IMG/VR virus record: IMGVR_UViG_3300015263_001049
Source of the DNA: an uncultured virus (IMG/VR IMGVR_UViG_3300015263_001049)
Lineage: Duplodnaviria; Heunggongvirae; Uroviricota; Caudoviricetes
DNA length: 64,000 nt
Strand: one strand, 5' to 3'
Numbering within the stretch: position 1 is the stretch's first letter; the number at the start of each line of letters is the position of its first letter. The notes beneath the pieces are model-generated. The model did no database searches, was not told the DNA's origin, and was given only the letters and a program-made list of their open reading frames with translations. Position numbers and translations under genes: made by a program. Positions 1,687-58,905 of the stretch are shown here, one piece after another.

Positions 1687-1801
1687 GTCACCCTCCCATG
1701 TCCGCCGAAGCGGACCAAGTTATGCCCCGAAATGGGGCCAAATTGGGGTTGTGGCTTTTTCTACACCGGGAAGACGTGCTATGCACGCATTTTCTGACAG
1801 G

Positions 1802-2032
1802 TCATCGACGGATTGACCCAACGTTCGTGTTTTCAGGCAACTTCCCGTCGATGTCGAACAGCTCCTTGGTGACGGCGTTCTCCACAAGCCAGCCTTGGCT
1901 TGTGTGAACAGCGTTGTGTTGTTGGTTCGTTCCTCTTGTATGGGCATTCGCCCGATTTATGGCGTCGGCTCGCTTGAAGAAGAAGCGGACCGTCACTCCA
2001 CCTAGCTCGGTCCGGTTGAAGACGACGCTCAT
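1802..2032 (-). CDS. small hypothetical protein
   Basis: 77-codon ORF starting MSVVFNRTEL, immediately after the stop of 2034-2333. Confidence 0.5.
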   Translation of the reverse strand: MSVVFNRTELGGVTVRFFFKRADAINRANAHTRGTNQQHNAVHTSQGWLVENAVTKELFDIDGKLPENTNVGSIRR

Positions 2033-2033
2033 G

Positions 2034-2333
2034 TCAGTCCACCACCACGAAGCTCGGGCCTCGGTAGGTCGCCACGACCTGACCCGTCCGGTGGTCCCGC
2101 ACGGAGGCCGAGAAGACAACCGTAGTCCCAAGGTGGGCATTGCAACCCCCAACCTTGGTGGAGTTCTCGAAGTGCCGCACGTACGCGGCGAGATTCTCCT
2201 CCGTGGGCTTCCCGTAACCGGGAAGCTGACCCCGCGAGCGGGTACGCCACTCGGCGGGGGTGCAACGGTGAGTCCCGGAAGGGGACACAGCCACCATTTC
2301 AACGGTCACATTCACAACGCGGCTAGCTCCCAT
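2034..2333 (-). CDS. hypothetical protein (leaderless)
   Basis: ATG 6 nt after a CGTCTA box at 2340-2345(-). Confidence 0.6.
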   Translation of the reverse strand: MGASRVVNVTVEMVAVSPSGTHRCTPAEWRTRSRGQLPGYGKPTEENLAAYVRHFENSTKVGGCNAHLGTTVVFSASVRDHRTGQVVATYRGPSFVVVD

Positions 2334-2498
2334 GCTCCGTAGACGTACGAAGGTACGCCCTTTCCGAAAAAACGACACCCTCAAAGTTTTTTCAAAAACC
2401 AACGAGGCTCGATCGTCTACCGAGAGCCAACGCAAATTACCCTGGTTCCTGTCAGATTGAGGAACCTACCCACGTCTTGCGGTGTACTAGGAGAGACC

Positions 2499-9527: not shown

Positions 9528-10451
9528 ATGGTCGACCATGCTCCATTGGTTGGGGAGGCGGTGGGGGACGCTCTCGGTATGGCCTTCGAGACGAAGGCCG
9601 CCGATGATGAGGCGCTCGCTCAATGGGATGGGGAAACGTTCCTCGCGAGCGAGTACCACGGACTGCGTCCAGGCCAGTGGACCGACGACACGATGATGGC
9701 GAAGTTCATCGCCGAGTCGATCGTGTCGTGTGGAGGCTTCTTCCCCCGAGACCTCGCTGACCGTTACCGAAGATGGTACCGCAGTAGCGACCATCGAGGC
9801 ATGGGGAAGACCACACGGGCCGCCCTCACCAATCTCGACAACGACATCCCGTGGACCCACTCAGGGATCGTAGGCGCCGAGGGTAACGGGACAGCGATGC
9901 GTGCCGCCCCCATCGGCTTCTTCTACCACGAGGACATCATAACGGTTCGCGAGTTCGCCAAGATGGACGCTCGCATCACCCACGCCTCTTTGGAGGCGGA
10001 GCAAGGGTCCGTCGCGGTTGGAGTAGGTGTTGCCATGCTTACGGTCGGAGCCGACCTCAAGGCCATGGTCAACGGAGTCATCAATCACCTGGAGGACTCG
10101 GAAGTGAAGCGGGGGTTGGAGAAGGTAGCCTTCTACCAACGCCAGAACGACCTCCCACCGTCTGAAGCTCTACGGGTCATCGGAACGTCCGCTCGGGTCA
10201 CGGAGACGGTCCCGTCTGCGTTCGCTGCTCTAGCCTTGACCAAGGATTTTGTAGAGGCAATCCAAGTCGCTATCCGAGCTGGCGGGGACACGGACACGAC
10301 CGCTGCGATTACGGGAGCGCTTGCGGGGACCTACTACGGGTTCGACGCCATCCCTAAGAAGTGGCTGGGAATCGAGAGCTTCAACCATCTCCGTCGACTT
10401 GAGCGTTGCATCGCCAGGGGTCCTAGAAGCGACGCTCTCTGGATCCTCTAG
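9528..10451 (+). CDS. ADP-ribosylglycohydrolase (DraG/ARH family)
   Basis: 'GDALG', 'WTDDT', 'GNGTAMRAAP' and 'GGDTDT' motifs. Confidence 0.92.
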   Translation: MVDHAPLVGEAVGDALGMAFETKAADDEALAQWDGETFLASEYHGLRPGQWTDDTMMAKFIAESIVSCGGFFPRDLADRYRRWYRSSDHRGMGKTTRAALTNLDNDIPWTHSGIVGAEGNGTAMRAAPIGFFYHEDIITVREFAKMDARITHASLEAEQGSVAVGVGVAMLTVGADLKAMVNGVINHLEDSEVKRGLEKVAFYQRQNDLPPSEALRVIGTSARVTETVPSAFAALALTKDFVEAIQVAIRAGGDTDTTAAITGALAGTYYGFDAIPKKWLGIESFNHLRRLERCIARGPRSDALWIL

Positions 10452-10682: not shown

Positions 10683-10688
10683 GGTGAG

Positions 10689-10763
10689 TGGTCCTGACGG
10701 GACTCGAACCCGCAAACCTGTACGGATTTAGAATCCGCCGCTCGGCCATTGAGCTTCAGGACC
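10689..10763 (-). tRNA. tRNA with CUA anticodon (amber suppressor)
   Basis: GGTCCTG/CAGGACC acceptor, GCTC/GAGC D-stem, GCGGA-TTCTAAA-TCCGT anticodon arm, GCGGG-TTCGAGT-CCCGT T-arm; A73, no encoded CCA; A8 and an 8-nt variable region are slightly atypical. Confidence 0.85.
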
Positions 10764-11812: not shown

Positions 11813-11845
11813 ACACGTTCCCCACAGCCTGTGGATAGAACGGGG

Positions 11846-11918
11846 CGCTCCCGGTGGGGCTCGAACCCACGACGACCAGATTTAGAATCCGGGCCTCTGC
11901 CAACTGAGGTACGGGAGC
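11846..11918 (-). tRNA. tRNA with CUA anticodon (amber suppressor)
   Basis: GCTCCCG/CGGGAGC acceptor, CCTC/GAGG D-stem, CCGGA-TTCTAAA-TCTGG anticodon arm, GTGGG-TTCGAGC-CCCAC T-arm; G73, no CCA. Confidence 0.9.
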
Positions 11919-17987: not shown

Positions 17988-18281
17988 ATGCCCAACTACG
18001 ATCGTCGCGCCACCGTAGATGACACCTTCACCAAGTGGTACGAGAGTCTTTCATCCCCGGCCATCCAAAGGCTGCGAGCCATGGATGACGCGTTCGTCGG
18101 AACGCCAAACTACATGGGCATCGTTTACTTCTGGAACATCGAGTACAAGTTCTCTCTTCGAGACGCCCCGCCAAGCAAGCGAATCGAAGTCCACAACGCC
18201 TTCCTGAAGGCGGGTCTGGACGTTTCCGGCGTTAGTTCAAAACACGCAGCAATCTTGAGGAAGTTCGGGCTTGGCTTCTAA
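17988..18281 (+). CDS. hypothetical protein with N-terminal YDRR tag
   Basis: begins MPNYDRRA. Confidence 0.65.
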   Translation: MPNYDRRATVDDTFTKWYESLSSPAIQRLRAMDDAFVGTPNYMGIVYFWNIEYKFSLRDAPPSKRIEVHNAFLKAGLDVSGVSSKHAAILRKFGLGF

Positions 18282-19024
18282 ACCTCGACCGTCTTCTTCT
18301 GGTCGAAGTCCGGGTTCGGTTCCCGAGGTAGCCTACTCCGTACGTAGCCGAACGGGTTGCAGACCACGCGGGTCTTCCCGACCACGTAGTCGAAGCTCGA
18401 ATGCGTGTGGCCGTGAATCCAGAGCTTCGCCTCACCGTGCTCTACGATGTCCCCGACGTTGTGGACGAAGTAGTGGTTGAGCGGGGAGGTAGCCCATTGA
18501 GGCGCGATGCTATTCACGTGCGGGACGAAGTGGGTCACCACCACGTCGCCCGGTTGAATCGTGTCGCGTAGCCACTTGGCCGACGCCTTCGCCTTGTCGT
18601 GAAGCCAGGTTTGCGTCCCCTCGATGTATGCGAAGTCCCCCATGTCCCGGTCCTCCTTGAGAGGGATCGGGTGTTCGTACCAAAGGGTGCAGCCGATGAA
18701 ACGCTGCCCTTGGATTGTGGTCGTCCCCAGTTCCAAGAAGTGAACGTTGGGGCAGTCCCGCTGGACTTGCCGAACTTCCTCCAAGGCTTCACCCAACGAC
18801 CCACCGTACAGCTCGTGATTACCCAAAGTGTAGACGACAGGACGAGGAGCTACGGCCTTCGCGAGCCGTTGAATCGAACGGTGGAGCGTAGGGCAGCTTG
18901 AGATGTCCCCGGCCAAAACGAGCACGTCAAAGTCCCCACGGGTGGACTTCCGGGTCATCACGCCCCCGGAATCCATGTGAAACTCGAAATGGAGATCGGA
19001 GAGTACGCGCAGACGTAGCGTCAT
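18278..19024 (-). CDS. calcineurin-like metallophosphoesterase
   Basis: 'SDLH', 'LAGDI', 'GNHE', 'VVTH', 'HGHTH', 'NPFGY'. Confidence 0.92.
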   Translation of the reverse strand: MTLRLRVLSDLHFEFHMDSGGVMTRKSTRGDFDVLVLAGDISSCPTLHRSIQRLAKAVAPRPVVYTLGNHELYGGSLGEALEEVRQVQRDCPNVHFLELGTTTIQGQRFIGCTLWYEHPIPLKEDRDMGDFAYIEGTQTWLHDKAKASAKWLRDTIQPGDVVVTHFVPHVNSIAPQWATSPLNHYFVHNVGDIVEHGEAKLWIHGHTHSSFDYVVGKTRVVCNPFGYVRSRLPREPNPDFDQKKTVEV

Positions 19025-21597: not shown

Positions 21598-21993
21598 ATG
21601 ACCCCGCTCTTCTCCGTCGTGGCTCTCATGCGCCGTGGAACGGACATCCTCGCGGTCTCCCGGAAGGACAACCACGAAGACCTCGGGCTCCCTGGAGGCA
21701 AGATCGACGAAGGGGAAACCCCTGAGCAGGCTCTCGCTCGGGAGATGGCCGAGGAGATCGGCTGCCGCCCTCTCGTGATGCTGCCTGCGTTCGAGCACCT
21801 GGACCGGGTCGAGGGCGACCAGCGCCGCCCCTGCCGCTGCTACCTCGTTCCGGAATGGGAGGGGGAGCCCGTCGCCAAGGAACGAGCACGAGTCGCGTGG
21901 GTGCCTCCGCAGAGGCTTCTGGAGCCTTCTTGCTCGTTCCACGAGTACAACCGGAGGTTGTTTGCCGCCGTCATGCCGATGGTGAAGTTCTGA
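21598..21993 (+). CDS. Nudix hydrolase
   Basis: Nudix box 'PGGKIDEGETPEQALAREMAEEIG'. Confidence 0.92.
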   Translation: MTPLFSVVALMRRGTDILAVSRKDNHEDLGLPGGKIDEGETPEQALAREMAEEIGCRPLVMLPAFEHLDRVEGDQRRPCRCYLVPEWEGEPVAKERARVAWVPPQRLLEPSCSFHEYNRRLFAAVMPMVKF

Positions 21994-22008: not shown

Positions 22009-23106
22009 ATGGACACCCGAGTCATCGCCAGAGTCGTCAATCGCTTCCTGTTGAAGCAGGCTGGCCCTCTTAGGGACGTGTCGAAGCTCCGCTTTCAGGC
22101 AGTCTTCATGATGGGAGCCGGGGGTTCTGGCAAAGGCTTCGTCGGTGAACGCTGGATGAAGTACATGCCCGGTGGTGGCTCCGGGGGCGCATCTTCCAAG
22201 CAATTCAAGGAATTGAGCAAGCGACATCTCGATGAGGCGGAACGAGGGCTGTCCAACCTCAACTTCGAGAAGGCCGTGGAAACGCTGGCTCAGCGTGGCT
22301 TCAAGATCGAGCTTCAGGACCCCAGCCACGCGAAGATCCCGTTCCAGCTTTTCTACTACGACGAGAAGCAGAACGAACGTGAGATACTGCCGAGTGAATG
22401 GGCGGAGAAGCTACCGCCGCAGGTCTACAATCAGGTGAAGGGCTTGGAACAGGTCGTCTTTACGACGCCTGTTCACGAGCTACCGTCGTATTGGCGACAG
22501 GTGAACCCGGACATCTACAAGGAAGAGTTGGCCGGCTACGTGAAAGAGATGCCGGGGTACGTTCACGAGATGTCCTCGGGCATGAGCAAGTCGTACTTCC
22601 AGGCCATCCTCGAAACAGGAGACCCCCTGTTCGTTGACGGTACGGGCAGTAACCCTCAGAAGATGAGCCAGCAGATGGAGGCGGCGAGGAAGAGTGGTTA
22701 CCACTTGTCGCTCGTCTATGTTCTAGTCCCTCTGACGGTCAACTTGATCCGCAACGCCACGAGGGCTCGCAACGTCGATGCGATGGAGATCGTGAGCCAG
22801 TGGCAGAAGATCCAAGGGAGCTTCCACGAGATCCGGGGTATTGCCGACAAGGTGCATGTCGTTCTGAACCGCAACGACAAGGTGGACGTTGCCACGTACC
22901 GCGCTCAGAAAGAGCGTATCGACATGCAGATCCGCAAGTCGACCAACGGACGCTACGACGGCCTCTTCGATATCGTGAAGCACGAGGCCCCGAAGGAGTT
23001 GGCTGAGTGGGGCGCTCTCTTGAAGCCCGAAGCTGAGGCTGATTCAAAGCGTGTGTCTCCGATGCCCCCAGAGCAGGGCAAGATGCCAGATTGGTTCTCC
23101 TCCTGA
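22009..23106 (+). CDS. P-loop kinase (zeta-toxin/AAA_33-like) with N-terminal RVVNRFL tag
   Basis: 'FMMGAGGSGKG', 'VNPD', 'LFVDGTG', 'RNATRAR'. Confidence 0.75.
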   Translation: MDTRVIARVVNRFLLKQAGPLRDVSKLRFQAVFMMGAGGSGKGFVGERWMKYMPGGGSGGASSKQFKELSKRHLDEAERGLSNLNFEKAVETLAQRGFKIELQDPSHAKIPFQLFYYDEKQNEREILPSEWAEKLPPQVYNQVKGLEQVVFTTPVHELPSYWRQVNPDIYKEELAGYVKEMPGYVHEMSSGMSKSYFQAILETGDPLFVDGTGSNPQKMSQQMEAARKSGYHLSLVYVLVPLTVNLIRNATRARNVDAMEIVSQWQKIQGSFHEIRGIADKVHVVLNRNDKVDVATYRAQKERIDMQIRKSTNGRYDGLFDIVKHEAPKELAEWGALLKPEAEADSKRVSPMPPEQGKMPDWFSS

Positions 23107-24282: not shown

Positions 24283-24516
24283 TCAGTCAATAAAACCCTT
24301 CACGATCCGCAGAATCTCCCGCGAGGTGACCAGCCGGCACTTGGCTTGGATCTCGACGATGCGCCGCTTCGGGATGTCGTAGTGAGGGAACCGGCTCCTC
24401 CGGTGGAACCAGCAAGGGTGGAGGCCCAAGTCCTGGGCCATCTTGTGGAGGTTCTCGATGCTGAAAGGTACGCAGACGAGGTGCCTGGCGTTGTCGCAGT
24501 AGTACGTGAGGGTCAC
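24283..24516 (-). CDS. DUF4031-like small protein
   Basis: 'HLVC...LHKMAQDLGL..CWFH...PHYDI'; GTGA overlap. Confidence 0.7.
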   Translation of the reverse strand: MTLTYYCDNARHLVCVPFSIENLHKMAQDLGLHPCWFHRRSRFPHYDIPKRRIVEIQAKCRLVTSREILRIVKGFID

Positions 24517-24770
24517 AAGCCCTGTTGCTTCACGTAGACGTAGCCCTTGTCCGTGAGAGTCACGAGGAAGCTCCGCTCCCCTTCGTCGATCGTCACGAGC
24601 TTCTTCTTCTCCAAGAGCTTGCACCCGTGAAGGTGTTTGCTGCTCGGCCGTAGCTCCAAGGGTTCCCCCTTCGCGTCAGCCTTGAGGATGAATCGGAGAG
24701 CCTCCAGTTCAGGCGGAGAAGCCTCCGCCGCAAAGCGGGCTGCAACACGGAGGGCGATTGGGTCCATCAC
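24513..24770 (-). CDS. small winged-helix-like protein with N-terminal RVAARF tag
   Basis: begins MDPIALRVAARFAA; ends 'LEKKKLV...VTLTDKG'. Confidence 0.6.
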   Translation of the reverse strand: MMDPIALRVAARFAAEASPPELEALRFILKADAKGEPLELRPSSKHLHGCKLLEKKKLVTIDEGERSFLVTLTDKGYVYVKQQGL

Positions 24771-24799
24771 AAGGCTCGGGAGATTGAAGGATTAAATCA

Positions 24800-25302
24800 C
24801 GAAACCCCGCAAGCCTTTCGGCCAACGGGGTCCGCTACCACCTTCAACAGCCTTTCTAGGGCATGTCCTCGCCCGGTTGCCCGGAGATGGTCGAGGCTCG
24901 CTTCCAGTTTCCCAAAAACGAGGTGACGACGCCTCGGATACCGCTGCCTGCAAGTTTGACCCTGCCGCTTAGCCTACCCGCTCGACACAGGAACTACCCC
25001 GCATCGAAGACACCCGACGAATCTCTCGACCCGCCGACCTCCCCGGTGTTTCACCCTTTCGAGTGTTTGCCGGAGCCGTAGTAACCAGGCCCATCGCTGG
25101 GTTCCAATCACCACTCGGGATTTCTTTCGTCCTCCCGCAGATTCCGAACGGCCTTTCAACCGCTCAGAGGGAGCCGGACTTCTTGCGTCCTCCGACTCTT
25201 CTCCCAGACTTCTTTCGTCCTCTGAGAGCCTTGCTCTGCCTAGCTCGCGCTAGCGTCGCCGACCTTTCAACGTTCAGGAGTTGCCCCCTGTCGTTCAAGG
25301 CG
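24800..25302 (-). ncRNA. large structured non-coding RNA (~500 nt; ROOL/GOLLD-like class possible)
   Basis: No credible ORF; sigma70-like promoter; at least six GNRA-capped hairpins; three 16-nt internal repeats; 3' GC hairpin followed by TTT. Confidence 0.7.
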
Positions 25303-25308
25303 GGGCGG

Positions 25309-25337
25309 ACAATACAGGTGGACCCTCGACATGGCAA
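25309..25337 (-). promoter_or_regulatory. sigma70-like promoter TTGCCA-N17-TATTGT for the ncRNA
   Basis: -35 at 25337-25332, -10 at 25314-25309, A-tract upstream. Confidence 0.6.
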
Positions 25338-25493
25338 ACACTTTTTTCGCCTGTCATGTCGATTTCTTACAGCCTTGTCAAACCAGGGAACTTTGCGTCA
25401 CCACCTTCGCGAAACTACGGTGTAGTAGAAGAAAGCGACCGAGCCCTCGTGATTCCGGTTGAAACCAGGGCGGTTCGATCGTCTACGAATACG

Positions 25494-45846: not shown

Positions 45847-46500
45847 GTGATCACTTTAGCCATCGCCGATGACCACCCACTCGTAAGGGTCGCTCTCAAG
45901 AACGTCATCCAAGGCGAGCCGGACATCCACGTAATCGGAGAGGCGTCTTCGTTTGAGGAAGCTCGGTCGCTCATCAACAGCCAGAAGCCCTCCGTCACCC
46001 TCCTCGACCTCCGGCTCGGCAATCGGTTTACCTTCGAGTTGATCGAGGTCTTCGCAACCGAGACCAACATCCTCGTGATCACCATGCACGAGGAGCTTGT
46101 CTACGCCATCACGGCCCTCAAGCGAGGCGCCAAGGGCTTCATCCACAAGACCGAGCCCCCCGAGGCCGTTCTCAAGGCCATCCGTAAGGTCGCCAAGGCG
46201 GAGAGCTACCTCTCCGAAGCCCTCCGCGATCAGGTCATCCAGATCCACTTCAAGTCCGACTCCAAGAAGGTCGGCGTAGACGCCCTCTCTTACCGGGAGT
46301 TGGAGGTGTTCTACATGCTGGGGGATGGTCTTACAACGAAGGAAATCAGCGAGAAGATGAGGATTTCCCCCAAAACAACCGAGACGCACCGGCAGAGGAT
46401 CAAGGAGAAGCTGGGCTGCGACTCCGGTAACGCCTTGATCGCAATGGCGTCCAAGTGGTTGGCTACCGGAACCTTCGGAGAACCAGACAAATCTGGTTGA
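45847..46500 (+). CDS. NarL/FixJ-family response regulator (REC + LuxR HTH)
   Basis: 'IADDHPLVR', 'LLDLRL', 'ITMH', 'LSYRELEV...GLTTKEISEKMRISPKTTETHR'. Confidence 0.92.
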   Translation: MITLAIADDHPLVRVALKNVIQGEPDIHVIGEASSFEEARSLINSQKPSVTLLDLRLGNRFTFELIEVFATETNILVITMHEELVYAITALKRGAKGFIHKTEPPEAVLKAIRKVAKAESYLSEALRDQVIQIHFKSDSKKVGVDALSYRELEVFYMLGDGLTTKEISEKMRISPKTTETHRQRIKEKLGCDSGNALIAMASKWLATGTFGEPDKSG

Positions 46501-54887: not shown

Positions 54888-55137
54888 AAGACGACGGCGA
54901 TGTCCGGGGCGAAGCCCCTGGACCGTGCGGCGGTACGTGGATCGTGCGTTAACTGGATACGCCCCTCCGACAAATTTTCCGGGTGTCAAGGAAATAATCG
55001 AGCGGTTCGGCGATCGAGTTGTGTCAAGCAGATTTTTCCGAGGAAATATTTGGACCACCCTCCGGAGAGCCCCCGGATGACAGGGTGTGGGAGAAATGGT
55101 GCCCGTGAAACCAGGGCACCTCGATCGTCTAGGAGTC

Positions 55138-55974
55138 ATGGCTACCTCTGACCTCTCAGGAGTGTGCGACGACCTCTCACTCGTGAGCCAGTGGCTCCGA
55201 GGGAGGCCCGACTCCACCAAGCGGGCGTACGAGCCCGTGGCCCTCGCCTTCGTCAAGGCATGCGGGCCACTCAAGGAGGCCACCGTCGAGCGAGTCACCG
55301 CCTACGTGGAGGGGCTCCAGGGGGAGCCAGCGACCAGGGCTCGGCTGGTATCCACCATCAAAAGTCTTCTCTCGTGGGGGTGGCGTACAGGGTACCTGGC
55401 TGCAAACGTGGGGCGTAGTATCAGGTGCGTGAAGGTACCCTCAAAACTTCATGGCAAACTTCTTTCCGAGGACGAGGTTCTTTCTCTCGTGCGTGCGGCC
55501 CCCCAGGGGGGCCGTGACCACGCCCTCTTGGTCCTCCTGTACGTGAGCGGCCTGCGTATCAGTGAGGCCATGAGCCTCAACTGGGGCGACCTCCGGGGCA
55601 ACCACGTCAGCGTCACAGGCAAAGGTACCAAGAGCAGGACCGTTCTCATCCCTGCGTCTGCGGCCGACCTCCTCCGGAGTCTTCAGGAAGGTGTCCAGCA
55701 ACCCCGCCAGAAGCCGATCTTCGTCTCCGCCACGACCGGGGACCGGCTGGGCGTCCGGGCTGCCAGGGAGGCTGTCTACAAGGCCGCCCTTCGGGTGGGC
55801 GACCGGCTGCCTCCCCACTGGCTCCGCCACGCTCATGCTTCGCACGCCCTGGACAACGGGTGCCCGATCCACATCGTCCAGCAAGGGCTGGGTCACGCGA
55901 GCGTCAGCACGACGTCGAAGTACCTCCACGTGAAGCCGGGCGTTGGGCCTAGCCAGTGGCTCCGTCCGGTGTAG
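55138..55974 (+). CDS. tyrosine recombinase (XerC/D-like)
   Basis: catalytic R (SGLRISE), K (GKG), HxxR (HWLRH), H (LGH), Y (TSKY); leaderless after CGTCTA. Confidence 0.93.
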   Translation: MATSDLSGVCDDLSLVSQWLRGRPDSTKRAYEPVALAFVKACGPLKEATVERVTAYVEGLQGEPATRARLVSTIKSLLSWGWRTGYLAANVGRSIRCVKVPSKLHGKLLSEDEVLSLVRAAPQGGRDHALLVLLYVSGLRISEAMSLNWGDLRGNHVSVTGKGTKSRTVLIPASAADLLRSLQEGVQQPRQKPIFVSATTGDRLGVRAAREAVYKAALRVGDRLPPHWLRHAHASHALDNGCPIHIVQQGLGHASVSTTSKYLHVKPGVGPSQWLRPV

Positions 55975-56390: not shown

Positions 56391-56948
56391 CTACACGGAC
56401 TTGAGCTTCCGCCTGTATCGGGAGTCCGACCGACTCTCGTACGCCTCCAGGGCGGCTCGCAGACCGTCCAGGTTGCCCGTGGTGAGGGCGATACGGGCCG
56501 CTCGGGCGAACCCTTCCGCCAGCTCCTTGTTGGCCTTCCCAGGGTGCTTGTGACCGAGCGTCCTGTAGCGGTGTAGGTGCTGCTCGGAATGCGTCGCCAG
56601 CTCCAGGTTGTCGAGCCGGTTGTTGGCGGGGTCTCCGTCCTTGTGGTTCACGGTCATACGCTCGGGGATGTCCCCATGGGCCATCTGCCACACGAAGCGG
56701 GCGACCGAGACGGTCCAGTAGTGACCCTGAGCCCGGATCTTGAAGCACCGATGTCCGCCCTTGGGGCCGTTGTCGATGCGGCTCGGGGGTCGGAGGATAG
56801 ACCGAAGCGCATCCATCCTCCGAAGGCGGTACACGGAGCCGTCCGGGTCGAGGCGTAGGTAGCCCTCACGGGCGAGCCGTGCCGCTTCACGCTCCGGGAA
56901 GTTCCTCGAATACGGCCCGCCCTTCCACTGCCCCGGTAGGTGCTCCAT
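56391..56948 (-). CDS. HNH endonuclease (HNH_3-type)
   Basis: 'VARFVWQMAHGDIP..MTVNHKDGDPANNRLDNLELATHSEQHLH'. Confidence 0.85.
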   Translation of the reverse strand: MEHLPGQWKGGPYSRNFPEREAARLAREGYLRLDPDGSVYRLRRMDALRSILRPPSRIDNGPKGGHRCFKIRAQGHYWTVSVARFVWQMAHGDIPERMTVNHKDGDPANNRLDNLELATHSEQHLHRYRTLGHKHPGKANKELAEGFARAARIALTTGNLDGLRAALEAYESRSDSRYRRKLKSV

Positions 56949-57202
56949 GACCCCATTGTGAGGGGCGTATGCCGGACAGTCAAGCTCCGGCCTATGGACC
57001 TCAAAACGAGACTTCTCGGATCTACCCCCCGTTTCATCGGGGAAACAGGGGCGTCCCGAGAGCCGAGCGACTGGCCGCTTCGCGGCCGGCGCAGGGCTGT
57101 CGCTCGATTCCCCCTCGCCCGTCAGGGTTCGAGGCAGCTCCCCCACGAGCACGGGTCGGGGCCGTGCGTCATTTTCATGCCCGTTTCATCGGGCACGCCG
57201 GG

Positions 57203-57234
57203 AAAATACCATGCCCGAAGAGGCATGGTATTTT
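57203..57234. repeat. perfect 13-bp inverted repeat AAAATACCATGCC-N6-GGCATGGTATTTT
   Basis: seen directly, in non-coding DNA. Confidence 0.8.
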
Positions 57235-57368
57235 GGAGGCCGGCTCGTCAAGCGGCGTACCAATTACCGCCTGTCGTTTGCCGCCGAATGTGTCCGTGAA
57301 CGCGTTTGGTTTTCGGGGCTCCCTCACCTACCGGACCTACATAGGCGCCTTCGGCGCTCTTGTCTGTC

Positions 57369-57404
57369 GAGTACGTGAACGAGTACGTGAACGAGTACGT
57401 GAAC
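57369..57404 (+). repeat. tandem repeat (GAGTACGTGAAC)x3
   Basis: three perfect 12-bp copies; iteron-like. Confidence 0.85.
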
Positions 57405-58119
57405 CGAGAAGGGGGTCCGGGGGGAGGGAGCGTCTGGAGAGGGGGAGGTCGATTCCGATCAGAATGGGCGACCTGTTGGCGTCCTCTCAGGCATGTCTAG
57501 GAAGCTGTCTCGAAAGCGGGTCGAGACTCTGTACCCTTGTGAGCGTTGCGGGGTGTGTGAGCCTTCTGGGAGGCTTGGGCGAGTCCGCCTTGACGGTGTC
57601 GTTCGGACGGTCTGTCAGGTGTGTCGGGAGACGATTCGTCGGTTGGACCGTGGGCCTTCTCTGGAGGGTGTGGCTCTCGACTCTCTCGACTCTTCGCCTG
57701 TGGGACCGTCTGGTTCCGCCTATCCACTGACGGGGGTTGGGCGGCTCGTTGGGGCGGACGTTTTCATGCGTCTTCGGTGTCCACGTCTTCGGGGCGACTG
57801 AGGGGGTCGGGTCCGCCTGGGAGAAGCCTACCTCATGACACGTTGGGTCGTCCTTTGGGTCTTCAAGTAGTCGTCATAAAAGAGGAAACCTGACGAGTGA
57901 GGGATAGGCTGGATCATGGGGCACGGAGGCGGGTTTGGGCTTTGGCTCGGGCGCCCCCTTCGGTGGTTTCGGTGCCCCACCAACCGTCACGGTCGATGTC
58001 CAGGTGGGAGGGGCCGAAGAGGACTTCCCAGCGCCAGCAGTCGGGGGCGACTTGGGTGACGGTCGCCAAGTGGTCTTCGTAACGGGCGAAGCTGTATCCT
58101 GGCTCGGGTGTGGTCCAGT

Positions 58120-58905
58120 TCATGTGTCTACGGGGTTGAGGGCGGCCATGGTTTGTTGCCAAGCACGGAGGCAGTTTGGGATGAGGCGTTCGACTTCGGC
58201 TCTTGCGGCATTGAGGTCCCTTGGGTTCCGACCTGCGCCTGTACGTCCTGGGTGGAGGGTGTCCCAGAGGGAGGCTCTCTCGTTTCCGTTCCTTCGGTTG
58301 TCGAGGTTGTGGTGACGGGAGCCGAAGCCGAAGTGACCTACGTTCCAGAGGGGGTTGAAGAGGTCGTGGAGAGCCCTCTCGATGTCGAGGAGCGTGTGTG
58401 GGAGGATGAGGAATCTGGCGGTGAAGTTCTCTGGGCCTAAGCCAGTTTGGGTGAGGGATCTTCCGCCGTGTTGGTAGTAGATTCTGTCGTGGAGGGCGTC
58501 GGCTCGACCATCGGCTTTACCGATGTAGATGGGGCAAGTGGACCCTGGTGAGCGGAGGGGCTGATAGAGGTCGAAGTCGCCGTGGTAGAAGAGGGCGTAG
58601 ACGCCGATTCCTTGGAAGGGGCGTACGGGTGGTTCGTGGAGTGGGAAGGGTCCGACGTTGAGGAGCCTTCGGGCGTGAGCGAGGATGAGCTTCGTACGGA
58701 CGACGTCGCCCATGGGGTCGTAGGGGGTAAGGTCGCTCTCTTGGAAGGCCCTTGTTGGGGCTGGGCATTCGAGCTTTTCGACGACGACCGGGGCGGGTGG
58801 GAGGCAATCGAGGGGTGAGTCGTCGCCTTCGGGGGTGATGGGCTTTGGCTTCGGTTTGGGGAGGAAGTCGAGGGGGTCGTCGTCACCCTCCGGTGGTCTG
58901 AGCAT
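58120..58905 (-). CDS. Eco29kI-family GIY-YIG endonuclease
   Basis: 'GVYALFYHGDF..Y', 'PIYIGKA', 'E..L...NPLWN..GFG..H', 'SLWDTLHPGR'. Confidence 0.85.
   Translation of the reverse strand: MLRPPEGDDDPLDFLPKPKPKPITPEGDDSPLDCLPPAPVVVEKLECPAPTRAFQESDLTPYDPMGDVVRTKLILAHARRLLNVGPFPLHEPPVRPFQGIGVYALFYHGDFDLYQPLRSPGSTCPIYIGKADGRADALHDRIYYQHGGRSLTQTGLGPENFTARFLILPHTLLDIERALHDLFNPLWNVGHFGFGSRHHNLDNRRNGNERASLWDTLHPGRTGAGRNPRDLNAARAEVERLIPNCLRAWQQTMAALNPVDT

Follow-up and report, generated by a model that had tools for sequence, protein, structure and literature searches.

The question raised by this locus is what a phage genome that is otherwise densely filled with genes keeps in a long intergenic gap. 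The window, by which we mean the whole 64,000-nt stretch of DNA that was analysed, has a GC content of 60%, and its small phage-type genes are tightly packed around the locus. The gap is approximately 720 nt long. At one end a small winged-helix-like gene starts on the minus strand (24770), and at the other lies the ATG of a divergent zinc-ribbon gene on the plus strand (25494). An earlier note on this DNA had proposed that the gap encodes a large, ornate, GNRA-rich phage non-coding RNA (ncRNA), and four lines of evidence speak for this proposal: fold energy, strand asymmetry, covariation, and occurrence in RNA libraries. The sequence is conserved with compensatory changes, its fold is specific to one strand, it contains no conserved open reading frame (ORF), and it is present in metatranscriptome assemblies. 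The features that delimit the putative transcription unit are the following:

25309..25364, minus strand: conserved upstream block with a promoter-like site (-35 TTGCCA at 25337-25332, -10 TATTGT at 25314-25309)
24800..25301, minus strand: ncRNA of about 500 nt, indicated by fold energy, covariation, and RNA-library contigs
24797..24831, minus strand: terminal GC-rich hairpin capped by a GAAA loop, with a U-rich tail behind it; this terminator-like 3' end is seen in the minimum-free-energy (MFE) fold, included in the curated structure as helix 19, and conserved in the viral homologue L121

Two homologues of the RNA were identified. L121 is a single copy on a 286-kb IMG/VR viral contig (G001) and is about 70% identical to the window, and L097 spans 640 nt of a 69-kb metagenome contig and lacks the 3' end of the RNA. 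That the RNA is encoded by phages is evident from the viral contig carrying L121 and from the PHROG-type phage genes of the window. The L121 contig was estimated by CheckV to be 60% complete and gave 41 tRNA matches over the cut-off. Because of its length at this completeness and the number of its tRNA matches, we assign the RNA to a huge-phage lineage. The window and the L121 contig share the zinc-ribbon, 86-aa, and 173-aa genes beyond the promoter, as well as the DUF4031 gene and a 106-aa gene downstream, and the genes that come right after the RNA differ.

L097 came from a two-copy motif scan of metagenome contigs, which gave at least 119 loci; among the matches listed, only L097 is genuine, and the others were rejected as coding repeats spaced in multiples of three or as long open frames. 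The two-copy motif scan of viral contigs had 0 matches. Four further pattern scans of viral contigs returned the L121 contig three times, together with L120 and L124, which were rejected as chance matches, and two pattern scans of genome contigs returned 0 matches. No match to the RNA was obtained by blastn among 50,697 phage records. Protein-anchored searches with the winged-helix or kinase-like neighbours found nothing, and the alignment search with the 173-aa neighbour found the L121 contig only. The RNA family may be larger than the three divergent members.

Traces of the locus are more widespread in environmental sequencing runs. According to a k-mer index, part of the locus is present in 20 runs from 15 studies (eight RNA libraries), and the whole locus in one run, which is probably the source sample. 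The contigs of four runs, labelled as sediment, soil, and mine drainage, were examined:

24833-25199: X5, sediment metatranscriptome, 380-nt contig with a depth of 19.9, 18 differences from the window
24838-25076: X12, soil metatranscriptome, 239-nt contig, 7 differences
24841-25067: X2, mine-drainage run of the index kind 'DNA?', 7 differences
24792-24920 joined to 24510-24430: X3, soil run of the index kind 'DNA?', 3 differences in the RNA piece

The contigs X5 and X12 from RNA libraries lie on the ncRNA alone, and its flanks are not covered. This fits a stable transcript, short of proof: the contigs carry no strand, end, or level information, DNA carry-over into RNA libraries is possible, and the X2 DNA contig stops about where the RNA contigs stop, so that the apparent ends are possibly assembly breaks. 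Neither uncovered parts of the locus nor the stops of contigs were therefore taken to mark transcript ends. The X3 contig joins position 24792 to 24510 with 11 other letters, thereby skipping the winged-helix-like gene and placing the 3' end of the RNA next to the DUF4031 gene.

The TTGCCA-17-TATTGT promoter-like sequence that the earlier note had pointed out, at 25337-25309 on the minus strand, is the sole sigma-70-type match between positions 24400 and 25800, where 0.1 would be expected. The upstream block of approximately 60 nt that contains it can be aligned in L097 and L121, and since it is kept even with the different upstream gene of L097, we argue that it is a promoter dedicated to the ncRNA. 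In the homologues, the -10 element is kept as TAnTGT and the -35 element is weaker; the sigma-70 scan did not call the aligned site in L121 and L097. The upstream block occurs once in the window and was therefore rejected as a general promoter motif of the phage. An inverted repeat around the -35 element was placed outside the RNA fold, because the homologues do not conserve it. We infer that the 5' end of the ncRNA is the G at 25301, 8 nt past the -10 element, and that the 3' end lies after the terminal hairpin. The U tail of this hairpin (24831-24804) is interrupted, and a simple terminator scan made no call there.

Could the gap nevertheless encode a protein? The short ORFs within it have 53-61 aa on the minus strand, and 72 and 120 aa on the plus strand. 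The claim of the earlier note that the locus has no credible ORF holds, in that positions 25301-24800 of the minus strand are without a conserved ORF, as judged from the one ORF compared: for the ORF at 24863-25081 on the plus strand, the one inside the RNA among the crude gene calls, tblastn found nothing in L121 and L097. The window contains two tRNA genes with CUA anticodons (amber suppressors), at 10688-10763 and 11844-11918 on the minus strand, with Rfam tRNA scores of 59.1 and 57.6 bits. An amidohydrolase gene on the opposite strand sits between them, and the G001 contig has tRNA matches at the place syntenic with the tRNAs of the window. These tRNAs, encoded 13 kb from the ncRNA, could in principle read through TAG and turn the locus into a protein gene under an altered code. 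Reading TAG as sense opens a single frame in the ncRNA, of 157 aa at 24797-25270; however, this frame is Arg-rich and junk-like in composition. The substitutions between the homologues are compensatory in stems, the indels are not multiples of three, and the sole ORF compared is the one without tblastn matches. Furthermore, TAG terminates 35 of the 128 crude gene calls in the window, where its reading as sense merely fuses adjacent ORFs, and no sign of TAG recoding was found inside the window. A recoded protein is thus hardly credible.

The evidence for a structured RNA starts with its predicted folding. The 516-nt RNA of the minus strand, counted from the promoter, has an MFE of -237 kcal/mol, as against -204 +/- 6.6 kcal/mol for dinucleotide shuffles (z -4.97), and 0 of 100 shuffles were as good. 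For the complementary strand, folding has no advantage over shuffles (z +0.52). The fold of the L121 RNA has a z of -7.6. The MFE fold of the window RNA contains approximately 15 hairpins, and 12 of the 15 loops belong to the GNRA family (GCAA, GCGA, GAAA, GAGA). All six GNRA hairpins named by the earlier note are present in this fold, each where it had been placed. The loops of L121 are GNRA in 12 of 15 cases as well, and the loops swap among GNRA members between the sequences.

The secondary structure is kept through compensatory changes. A consensus calculated by RNAalifold from the window and L121 has 146 predicted pairs, of which 26 have changes on both sides and 0 are broken. A curated structure of 122 pairs in 19 helices was built on a MAFFT alignment of three sequences (window, L121, and L097). 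Six helices were omitted from it (outer P2, R3, outer P5, P6, P9a, and the MFE closing helix P1), either because they were misaligned by MAFFT, P6 among these, or because the helix failed in the homologues. The P1 helix holds in five of seven pairs in L121, and local folding recovers the omitted hairpins P2, R3, P5, P6, and P9 in each of the three sequences. The observed share of paired cells in the curated structure is 99.1%, compared to 31-54% when it is slid by 1-3 columns and 93.0% in shuffles, and both-side changes were found in 29 of the 122 pairs, compared to 2-6 in slid and 12.0 +/- 2.6 in shuffled controls (0 of 500 shuffles reach 29); since the helices were picked with the sequences in view, both kinds of control flatter the structure, and with as few as three sequences they are indicative rather than a formal test. 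The covariation is based on the three divergent sequences and the four near-identical environmental fragments, and the pairs changed on both sides include the long-range helix LR1 and the pseudoknot-like helix A. The elements of the RNA outside the repeats, with helix numbers of the curated structure, are:

25228..25301, minus strand: helix A (helix 1), formed by 25301-25296 with 25233-25228; encloses P2 and P3a and is pseudoknotted with LR1
25269..25295, minus strand: P2 hairpin capped by GCAA, found in each of the three sequences with a differing stem sequence
24925..25260, minus strand: long-range helix LR1 (helix 3), formed by 25260-25252 with 24933-24925; closes the central multi-helix domain
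25240..25253, minus strand: P3a hairpin with a GCGA loop (helix 4), one both-side change
25143..25168, minus strand: P4b hairpin with a GAAA loop (helix 10), two both-side and six one-side changes, all paired
25078..25114, minus strand: two-part P5 hairpin with a GCGA loop, the inner stem of which covaries (helix 11)
25041..25075, minus strand: P6 hairpin with a GAAA loop, GNRA-capped in all three sequences
25014..25037, minus strand: P7 hairpin with a GAGA loop (helix 12)
24981..25008, minus strand: P8 hairpin with a variable loop (helix 13), four both-side changes
24935..24980, minus strand: P9 arm (helix 14), in which the AA bulge and the GUCAAA loop are invariant
24850..24921, minus strand: 3' domain composed of P10 (GAAA loop; helix 15), P11 (GCAA loop), and P12

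Three of the six pairs of helix A are changed on both sides, and 100% of its lettered cells are paired; one L121 cell is a gap. Both-side changes were found in four of the seven counted pairs of LR1, in which 0 are broken. The stem of P9 beneath the invariant loop has three both-side changes. The P10 stem has four, in addition to a double change of 24905/24914 that occurs in all four environmental runs. P11 and P12 do not differ between the window and L121, and the 3' domain as a whole (P10-P12) is almost invariant. The elements that are invariant in both sequence and structure are the entire R2 hairpin described below (32 nt), the AA bulge of P9, and its GUCAAA loop. We take the AA-bulge helix of P9 to resemble a tetraloop receptor.

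The environmental contigs agree with this structure. Thirteen of the 16 listed differences of X5 are located in helices, as four double and five single changes, all of which keep the pairs. They include four substitutions in P4b with all pairing kept and three pairs of P5 altered on both sides, all kept. X12, X2, and X3 have one double and one single change each, which are likewise kept. The P7 loop is changed from GAGA to GUGA in X5 and X12 and is still a GNRA loop. In the four runs, 0 scored pairs are broken; one X2 change in LR1 is unscored, as its partner base lies beyond the contig.

The three internal repeats pointed out by the earlier note are real and about 15-22 nt long. Their 11-nt core, GGACGNRAGAA, occurs four times in the 64-kb window, where 0.68 occurrences would be expected, and three of them are inside the ncRNA. 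Each repeat forms the top of a hairpin, the stem of which leads to a 3x3 internal loop of purines, with GGA facing AAG; above it, one C-G pair closes the GNRA loop:

25201..25228, minus strand: R1 with a GAAA loop (helix 6), three of six pairs with both-side changes
25171..25198, minus strand: R2 with a GCAA loop, the most conserved element of the ncRNA, within a 32-nt block identical in the window, L121, and L097
25116..25137, minus strand: R3, a repeat module confined to the window lineage

The earlier note had suggested that the repeats could serve in protein binding or oligomerisation; only R1 and R2 of the three are conserved in the homologues. The stem of R1 is kept in L121 by covariation, and its purine internal loop is partly Watson-Crick paired there. 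The X5 RNA contig spans R2 and has no listed difference in it. The position of R3 is occupied in L121 and L097 by a plain hairpin of 7-8 bp. The stem CUCAGAGG/CCUCUGAG, which had been suggested to enclose the second repeat, is present in the sequence but competes with the R1 stem and P4b, which hold the covariation, and did not stand. The motif GUUGAA(A)GG does recur as had been noted, but the homologues conserve it only as the loop of P4b.

The repeats raise the possibility of a decoy or sponge, in which the R hairpins would titrate an RNA-binding protein of the host or phage, such as a defence nuclease or a translation or RNA-repair factor, and the rest of the RNA would present the hairpins. 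One hairpin module in two to three copies is what such an RNA would contain, and the invariance of both stem and loop of R2 points to sequence-specific recognition beyond mere pairing. RNA-related products of the window include Ro60, a Nudix hydrolase, a kinase-like P-loop protein, and two suppressor tRNAs, and the design of the R hairpin bears a possible resemblance to the sarcin-ricin loop. However, known sponges have many copies, and here no more than two are conserved; the internal loop of R1 is also altered in L121. The bulk of the conserved structure is located outside the repeats, and no candidate partner is linked to the RNA in all contexts. We therefore regard a sponge as distinctly improbable.

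Several other regions of the window deserve description in their own right. A Ro60/TROVE protein with a vWA domain is encoded at 22-1686 on the minus strand. The 770 nt upstream of it (1687-2456, minus strand) fold with a z of -5.76 relative to 20 shuffles, have no Rfam match, and contain a possible ORF of 133 aa; this stretch could be a Y-RNA-like partner of Ro60. Genes of nucleotide and RNA metabolism encode an ADP-ribosylglycohydrolase (9528-10451) and a metallophosphoesterase (18278-19024), and the same accessory cluster contains a Nudix hydrolase (21598-21993) and a zeta-toxin/AAA_33 kinase-like protein (22009-23106). The gene at 45847-46500 on the plus strand encodes a response regulator, the output domain of which is an HTH of the LuxR/GerE type. 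A second gap, of about 675 nt at 57153-57827, contains a threefold direct 12-mer repeat and folds into strong hairpins, with z about -3 for either strand, and the GC skew changes sign there. Genes for a tyrosine integrase (55087-55974), an HNH endonuclease (56391-57152), and an Eco29kI-like endonuclease (58120-58905) are located nearby. This gap may be an inserted island or attachment region.

Whether the ncRNA acts on its own or as part of an mRNA depends on its relationship to the genes downstream:

24513..24770, minus strand: small winged-helix-like gene, labelled from a reading of its sequence, with no family match
24283..24516, minus strand: DUF4031 gene (Pfam E 1.7e-8), overlapping the previous stop codon (GTGA)

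The main rival to a self-standing RNA is a cis-acting leader of the mRNA for these two genes, which would control their expression through the terminal hairpin, as in a riboswitch-like element or processive antitermination, or serve as a 5' stabiliser. The RNA is oriented in the same direction as the genes, and the next start codon comes only about 30 nt after the terminal hairpin. The DUF4031 gene is located downstream of the RNA in three of three visible cases (window, L121, and X3), and in X3, where the 3' end of the RNA lies almost directly on it, there is little room for a separate promoter. On the other hand, the intervening genes differ in every case. The winged-helix-like gene of the window behaves as an indel: it is missing from the soil relative X3, which has none between the RNA and DUF4031, and has no relative in L121, where two unrelated genes of 205 and 145 aa take its place. 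DUF4031 is common in jumbo and huge phages without the RNA: it was found in 14 phage records, it lies in a tight operon in Flavobacterium phage MaF61, and phages of 460-640 kb, including three of 630-640 kb, contain no match to the RNA. An RNA of 500 nt with approximately 15 hairpins is far bigger than known leaders, and no alternative antiterminator pairing was identified. The contigs from RNA libraries stop short of the downstream genes, although this is weak evidence. We consider a cis-acting leader unlikely.

The DUF4031 protein itself is small and highly conserved, with 584 cluster representatives at E <= 0.001, and its invariant residues include Cys, His, Asp, and Trp as well as a HYDIPK motif. 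Its predicted model is confident (pLDDT 93.3). A similarity to SRP19 suggested by weak phmmer matches (E 0.07 and 0.47) was rejected, as a profile of 34 sequences gave 0 PDB matches. Foldseek returned nothing at E <= 0.001, and VIA-align found no clear fold match, with a best Z of 4.5 and SRP19 absent from its list. These results gave no clue to the function of DUF4031, and the idea that it is a partner of the RNA was rejected.

The locus was compared with Rfam 15, which contains 4,227 models. At the gathering score, the cmscan search of the whole window reported only two tRNAs. At E <= 10, nothing was found on L121 and L097, and the matches at the window locus, to Yfr1 and a human lncRNA fragment, were rejected as junk. 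ARAGORN found tRNAs only and no tmRNA in the window. The RNA has no Rfam match to ROOL, GOLLD, RNase P, tmRNA, SRP RNA, group I/II introns, Y RNA, or HEARO. The earlier note had offered either a member of the ROOL/GOLLD class or a new RNA; with no credible Rfam 15 match in the three sequences, the membership is not supported, and the new RNA is the supported alternative. No published description of the ncRNA was found in the literature at the level of abstracts. By Rfam 15 and the literature, the RNA is a new family, unrelated to those described, within the known kind of large ornate phage ncRNAs.

A further rival is a very divergent form of a known RNA (RNase P, group I/II intron, tmRNA, SRP RNA, Y RNA, or HEARO/omega RNA), and the size of the ncRNA and its style of GNRA loops plus receptor are like those of group I introns and RNase P. 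Short stretches of R2 and P9 may resemble conserved RNase P regions, a likeness that no Rfam model supports. Also in favour, Ro60 is encoded within the same window; however, the Ro60 gene is 23 kb off. The flanks of the RNA hold no split host gene, which an intron would require, and there is no IscB, TnpB, or reverse transcriptase nearby. Given also that neither the window, L121, nor L097 has a credible match in Rfam 15 (E <= 10), and that ARAGORN calls no tmRNA, a divergent known RNA is very improbable. The sponge, the divergent ribozyme, and the recoded protein are all less likely than the leader.

Taken together, we favour, with a little better than even confidence, the reading that the locus is a self-standing structured ncRNA gene of about 500 nt from a huge-phage lineage, which founds a new family and acts in trans as a scaffold or within a ribonucleoprotein (RNP). 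Based on the sequences and predicted structures, a mechanism can be proposed. The RNA would be transcribed from its own conserved upstream block, starting near 25301, and end at the conserved terminal hairpin or shortly ahead of it. Helix A and LR1 would build a pseudoknotted frame with about 12 GNRA-capped hairpins projecting from it. The dozen GNRA loops and the AA-bulge helix lead us to infer a dense A-minor packing of tetraloops against helices, which could take place within one molecule or between copies. The GNRA loops would dock into the minor grooves of helices and into the AA-bulge arm of P9, and this docking would yield a compact particle, monomeric or homo-oligomeric. The invariant R2 hairpin and the P9 loop may be surfaces for the binding of a partner, which could be a protein or a second copy of the RNA. 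The RNA would probably act in trans during infection, in the role of structural scaffold or RNP that ROOL and GOLLD are suspected to have, and not as an antisense or coding RNA. We speculate, more tentatively, that it represents a third independent class of ornate phage RNA, from huge phages of sediment and soil, which through its dozen GNRA loops and its AA-bulge arm would assemble into either a higher-order RNA-only particle or the core of a phage RNP that infection requires, with R2 as the contact to other subunits or to a partner. With its 500 nt and many GNRA loops, the RNA is a compact and tractable target for cryo-EM and for learning the function of such RNAs.

The many GNRA tetraloops, the AA-bulge helix, the long-range helices, and the pseudoknot give the ncRNA what we take to be a likeness to group I introns and RNase P; it differs from them in having no Rfam match, no flanking exons, and no recognized catalytic-core motifs. 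OLE RNA is co-transcribed with small partner-protein genes. As summarized in the literature, it is also a large ornate RNA and works as an RNP, but it is bacterial, membrane-associated, and partnered by OapA, OapB, and OapC, whereas the ncRNA described here has no match to its model and no such proteins.

The closest comparison is with the phage-borne RNAs ROOL and GOLLD. Large ornate RNAs without an assigned function are rare. These two, which are encoded by phages, were recently shown to form RNA-only cages held together by kissing loops and A-minor contacts, as summarized in bioRxiv 10.1101/2024.12.08.627333. RNAs of this kind are often found next to tRNA islands; the ncRNA described here is not, the distance to the nearest tRNAs being 13 kb in the window and 11 kb or more in G001. 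No conserved palindromic kissing loop was seen by eye in the three-sequence alignment and local folds. According to the same summary (bioRxiv 10.1101/2024.12.08.627333), GOLLD shares with the ncRNA a large, ornate, multi-hairpin architecture, phage or prophage encoding, and a covarying structure; it is longer than 800 nt, as opposed to about 500 nt here, and assembles into a 14-mer cage. The ncRNA further departs from GOLLD in the absence of a model match, of adjacency to a tRNA island, and of palindromic kissing loops. ROOL (Rumen-Originating, Ornate, Large) is of a similar size class, encoded by phages or prophages, rich in hairpins, and built on tertiary and quaternary A-minor contacts (bioRxiv 10.1101/2024.12.08.627333), to which the GNRA loops of the ncRNA would provide a link. 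The two differ in that ROOL is described as an octameric cage with another secondary structure and a model that does not match, and in that the ncRNA belongs to huge phages of sediment and soil with 60% GC. If the ncRNA is indeed an unrelated family of huge phages, RNAs such as ROOL and GOLLD would be a recurrent invention of phages.
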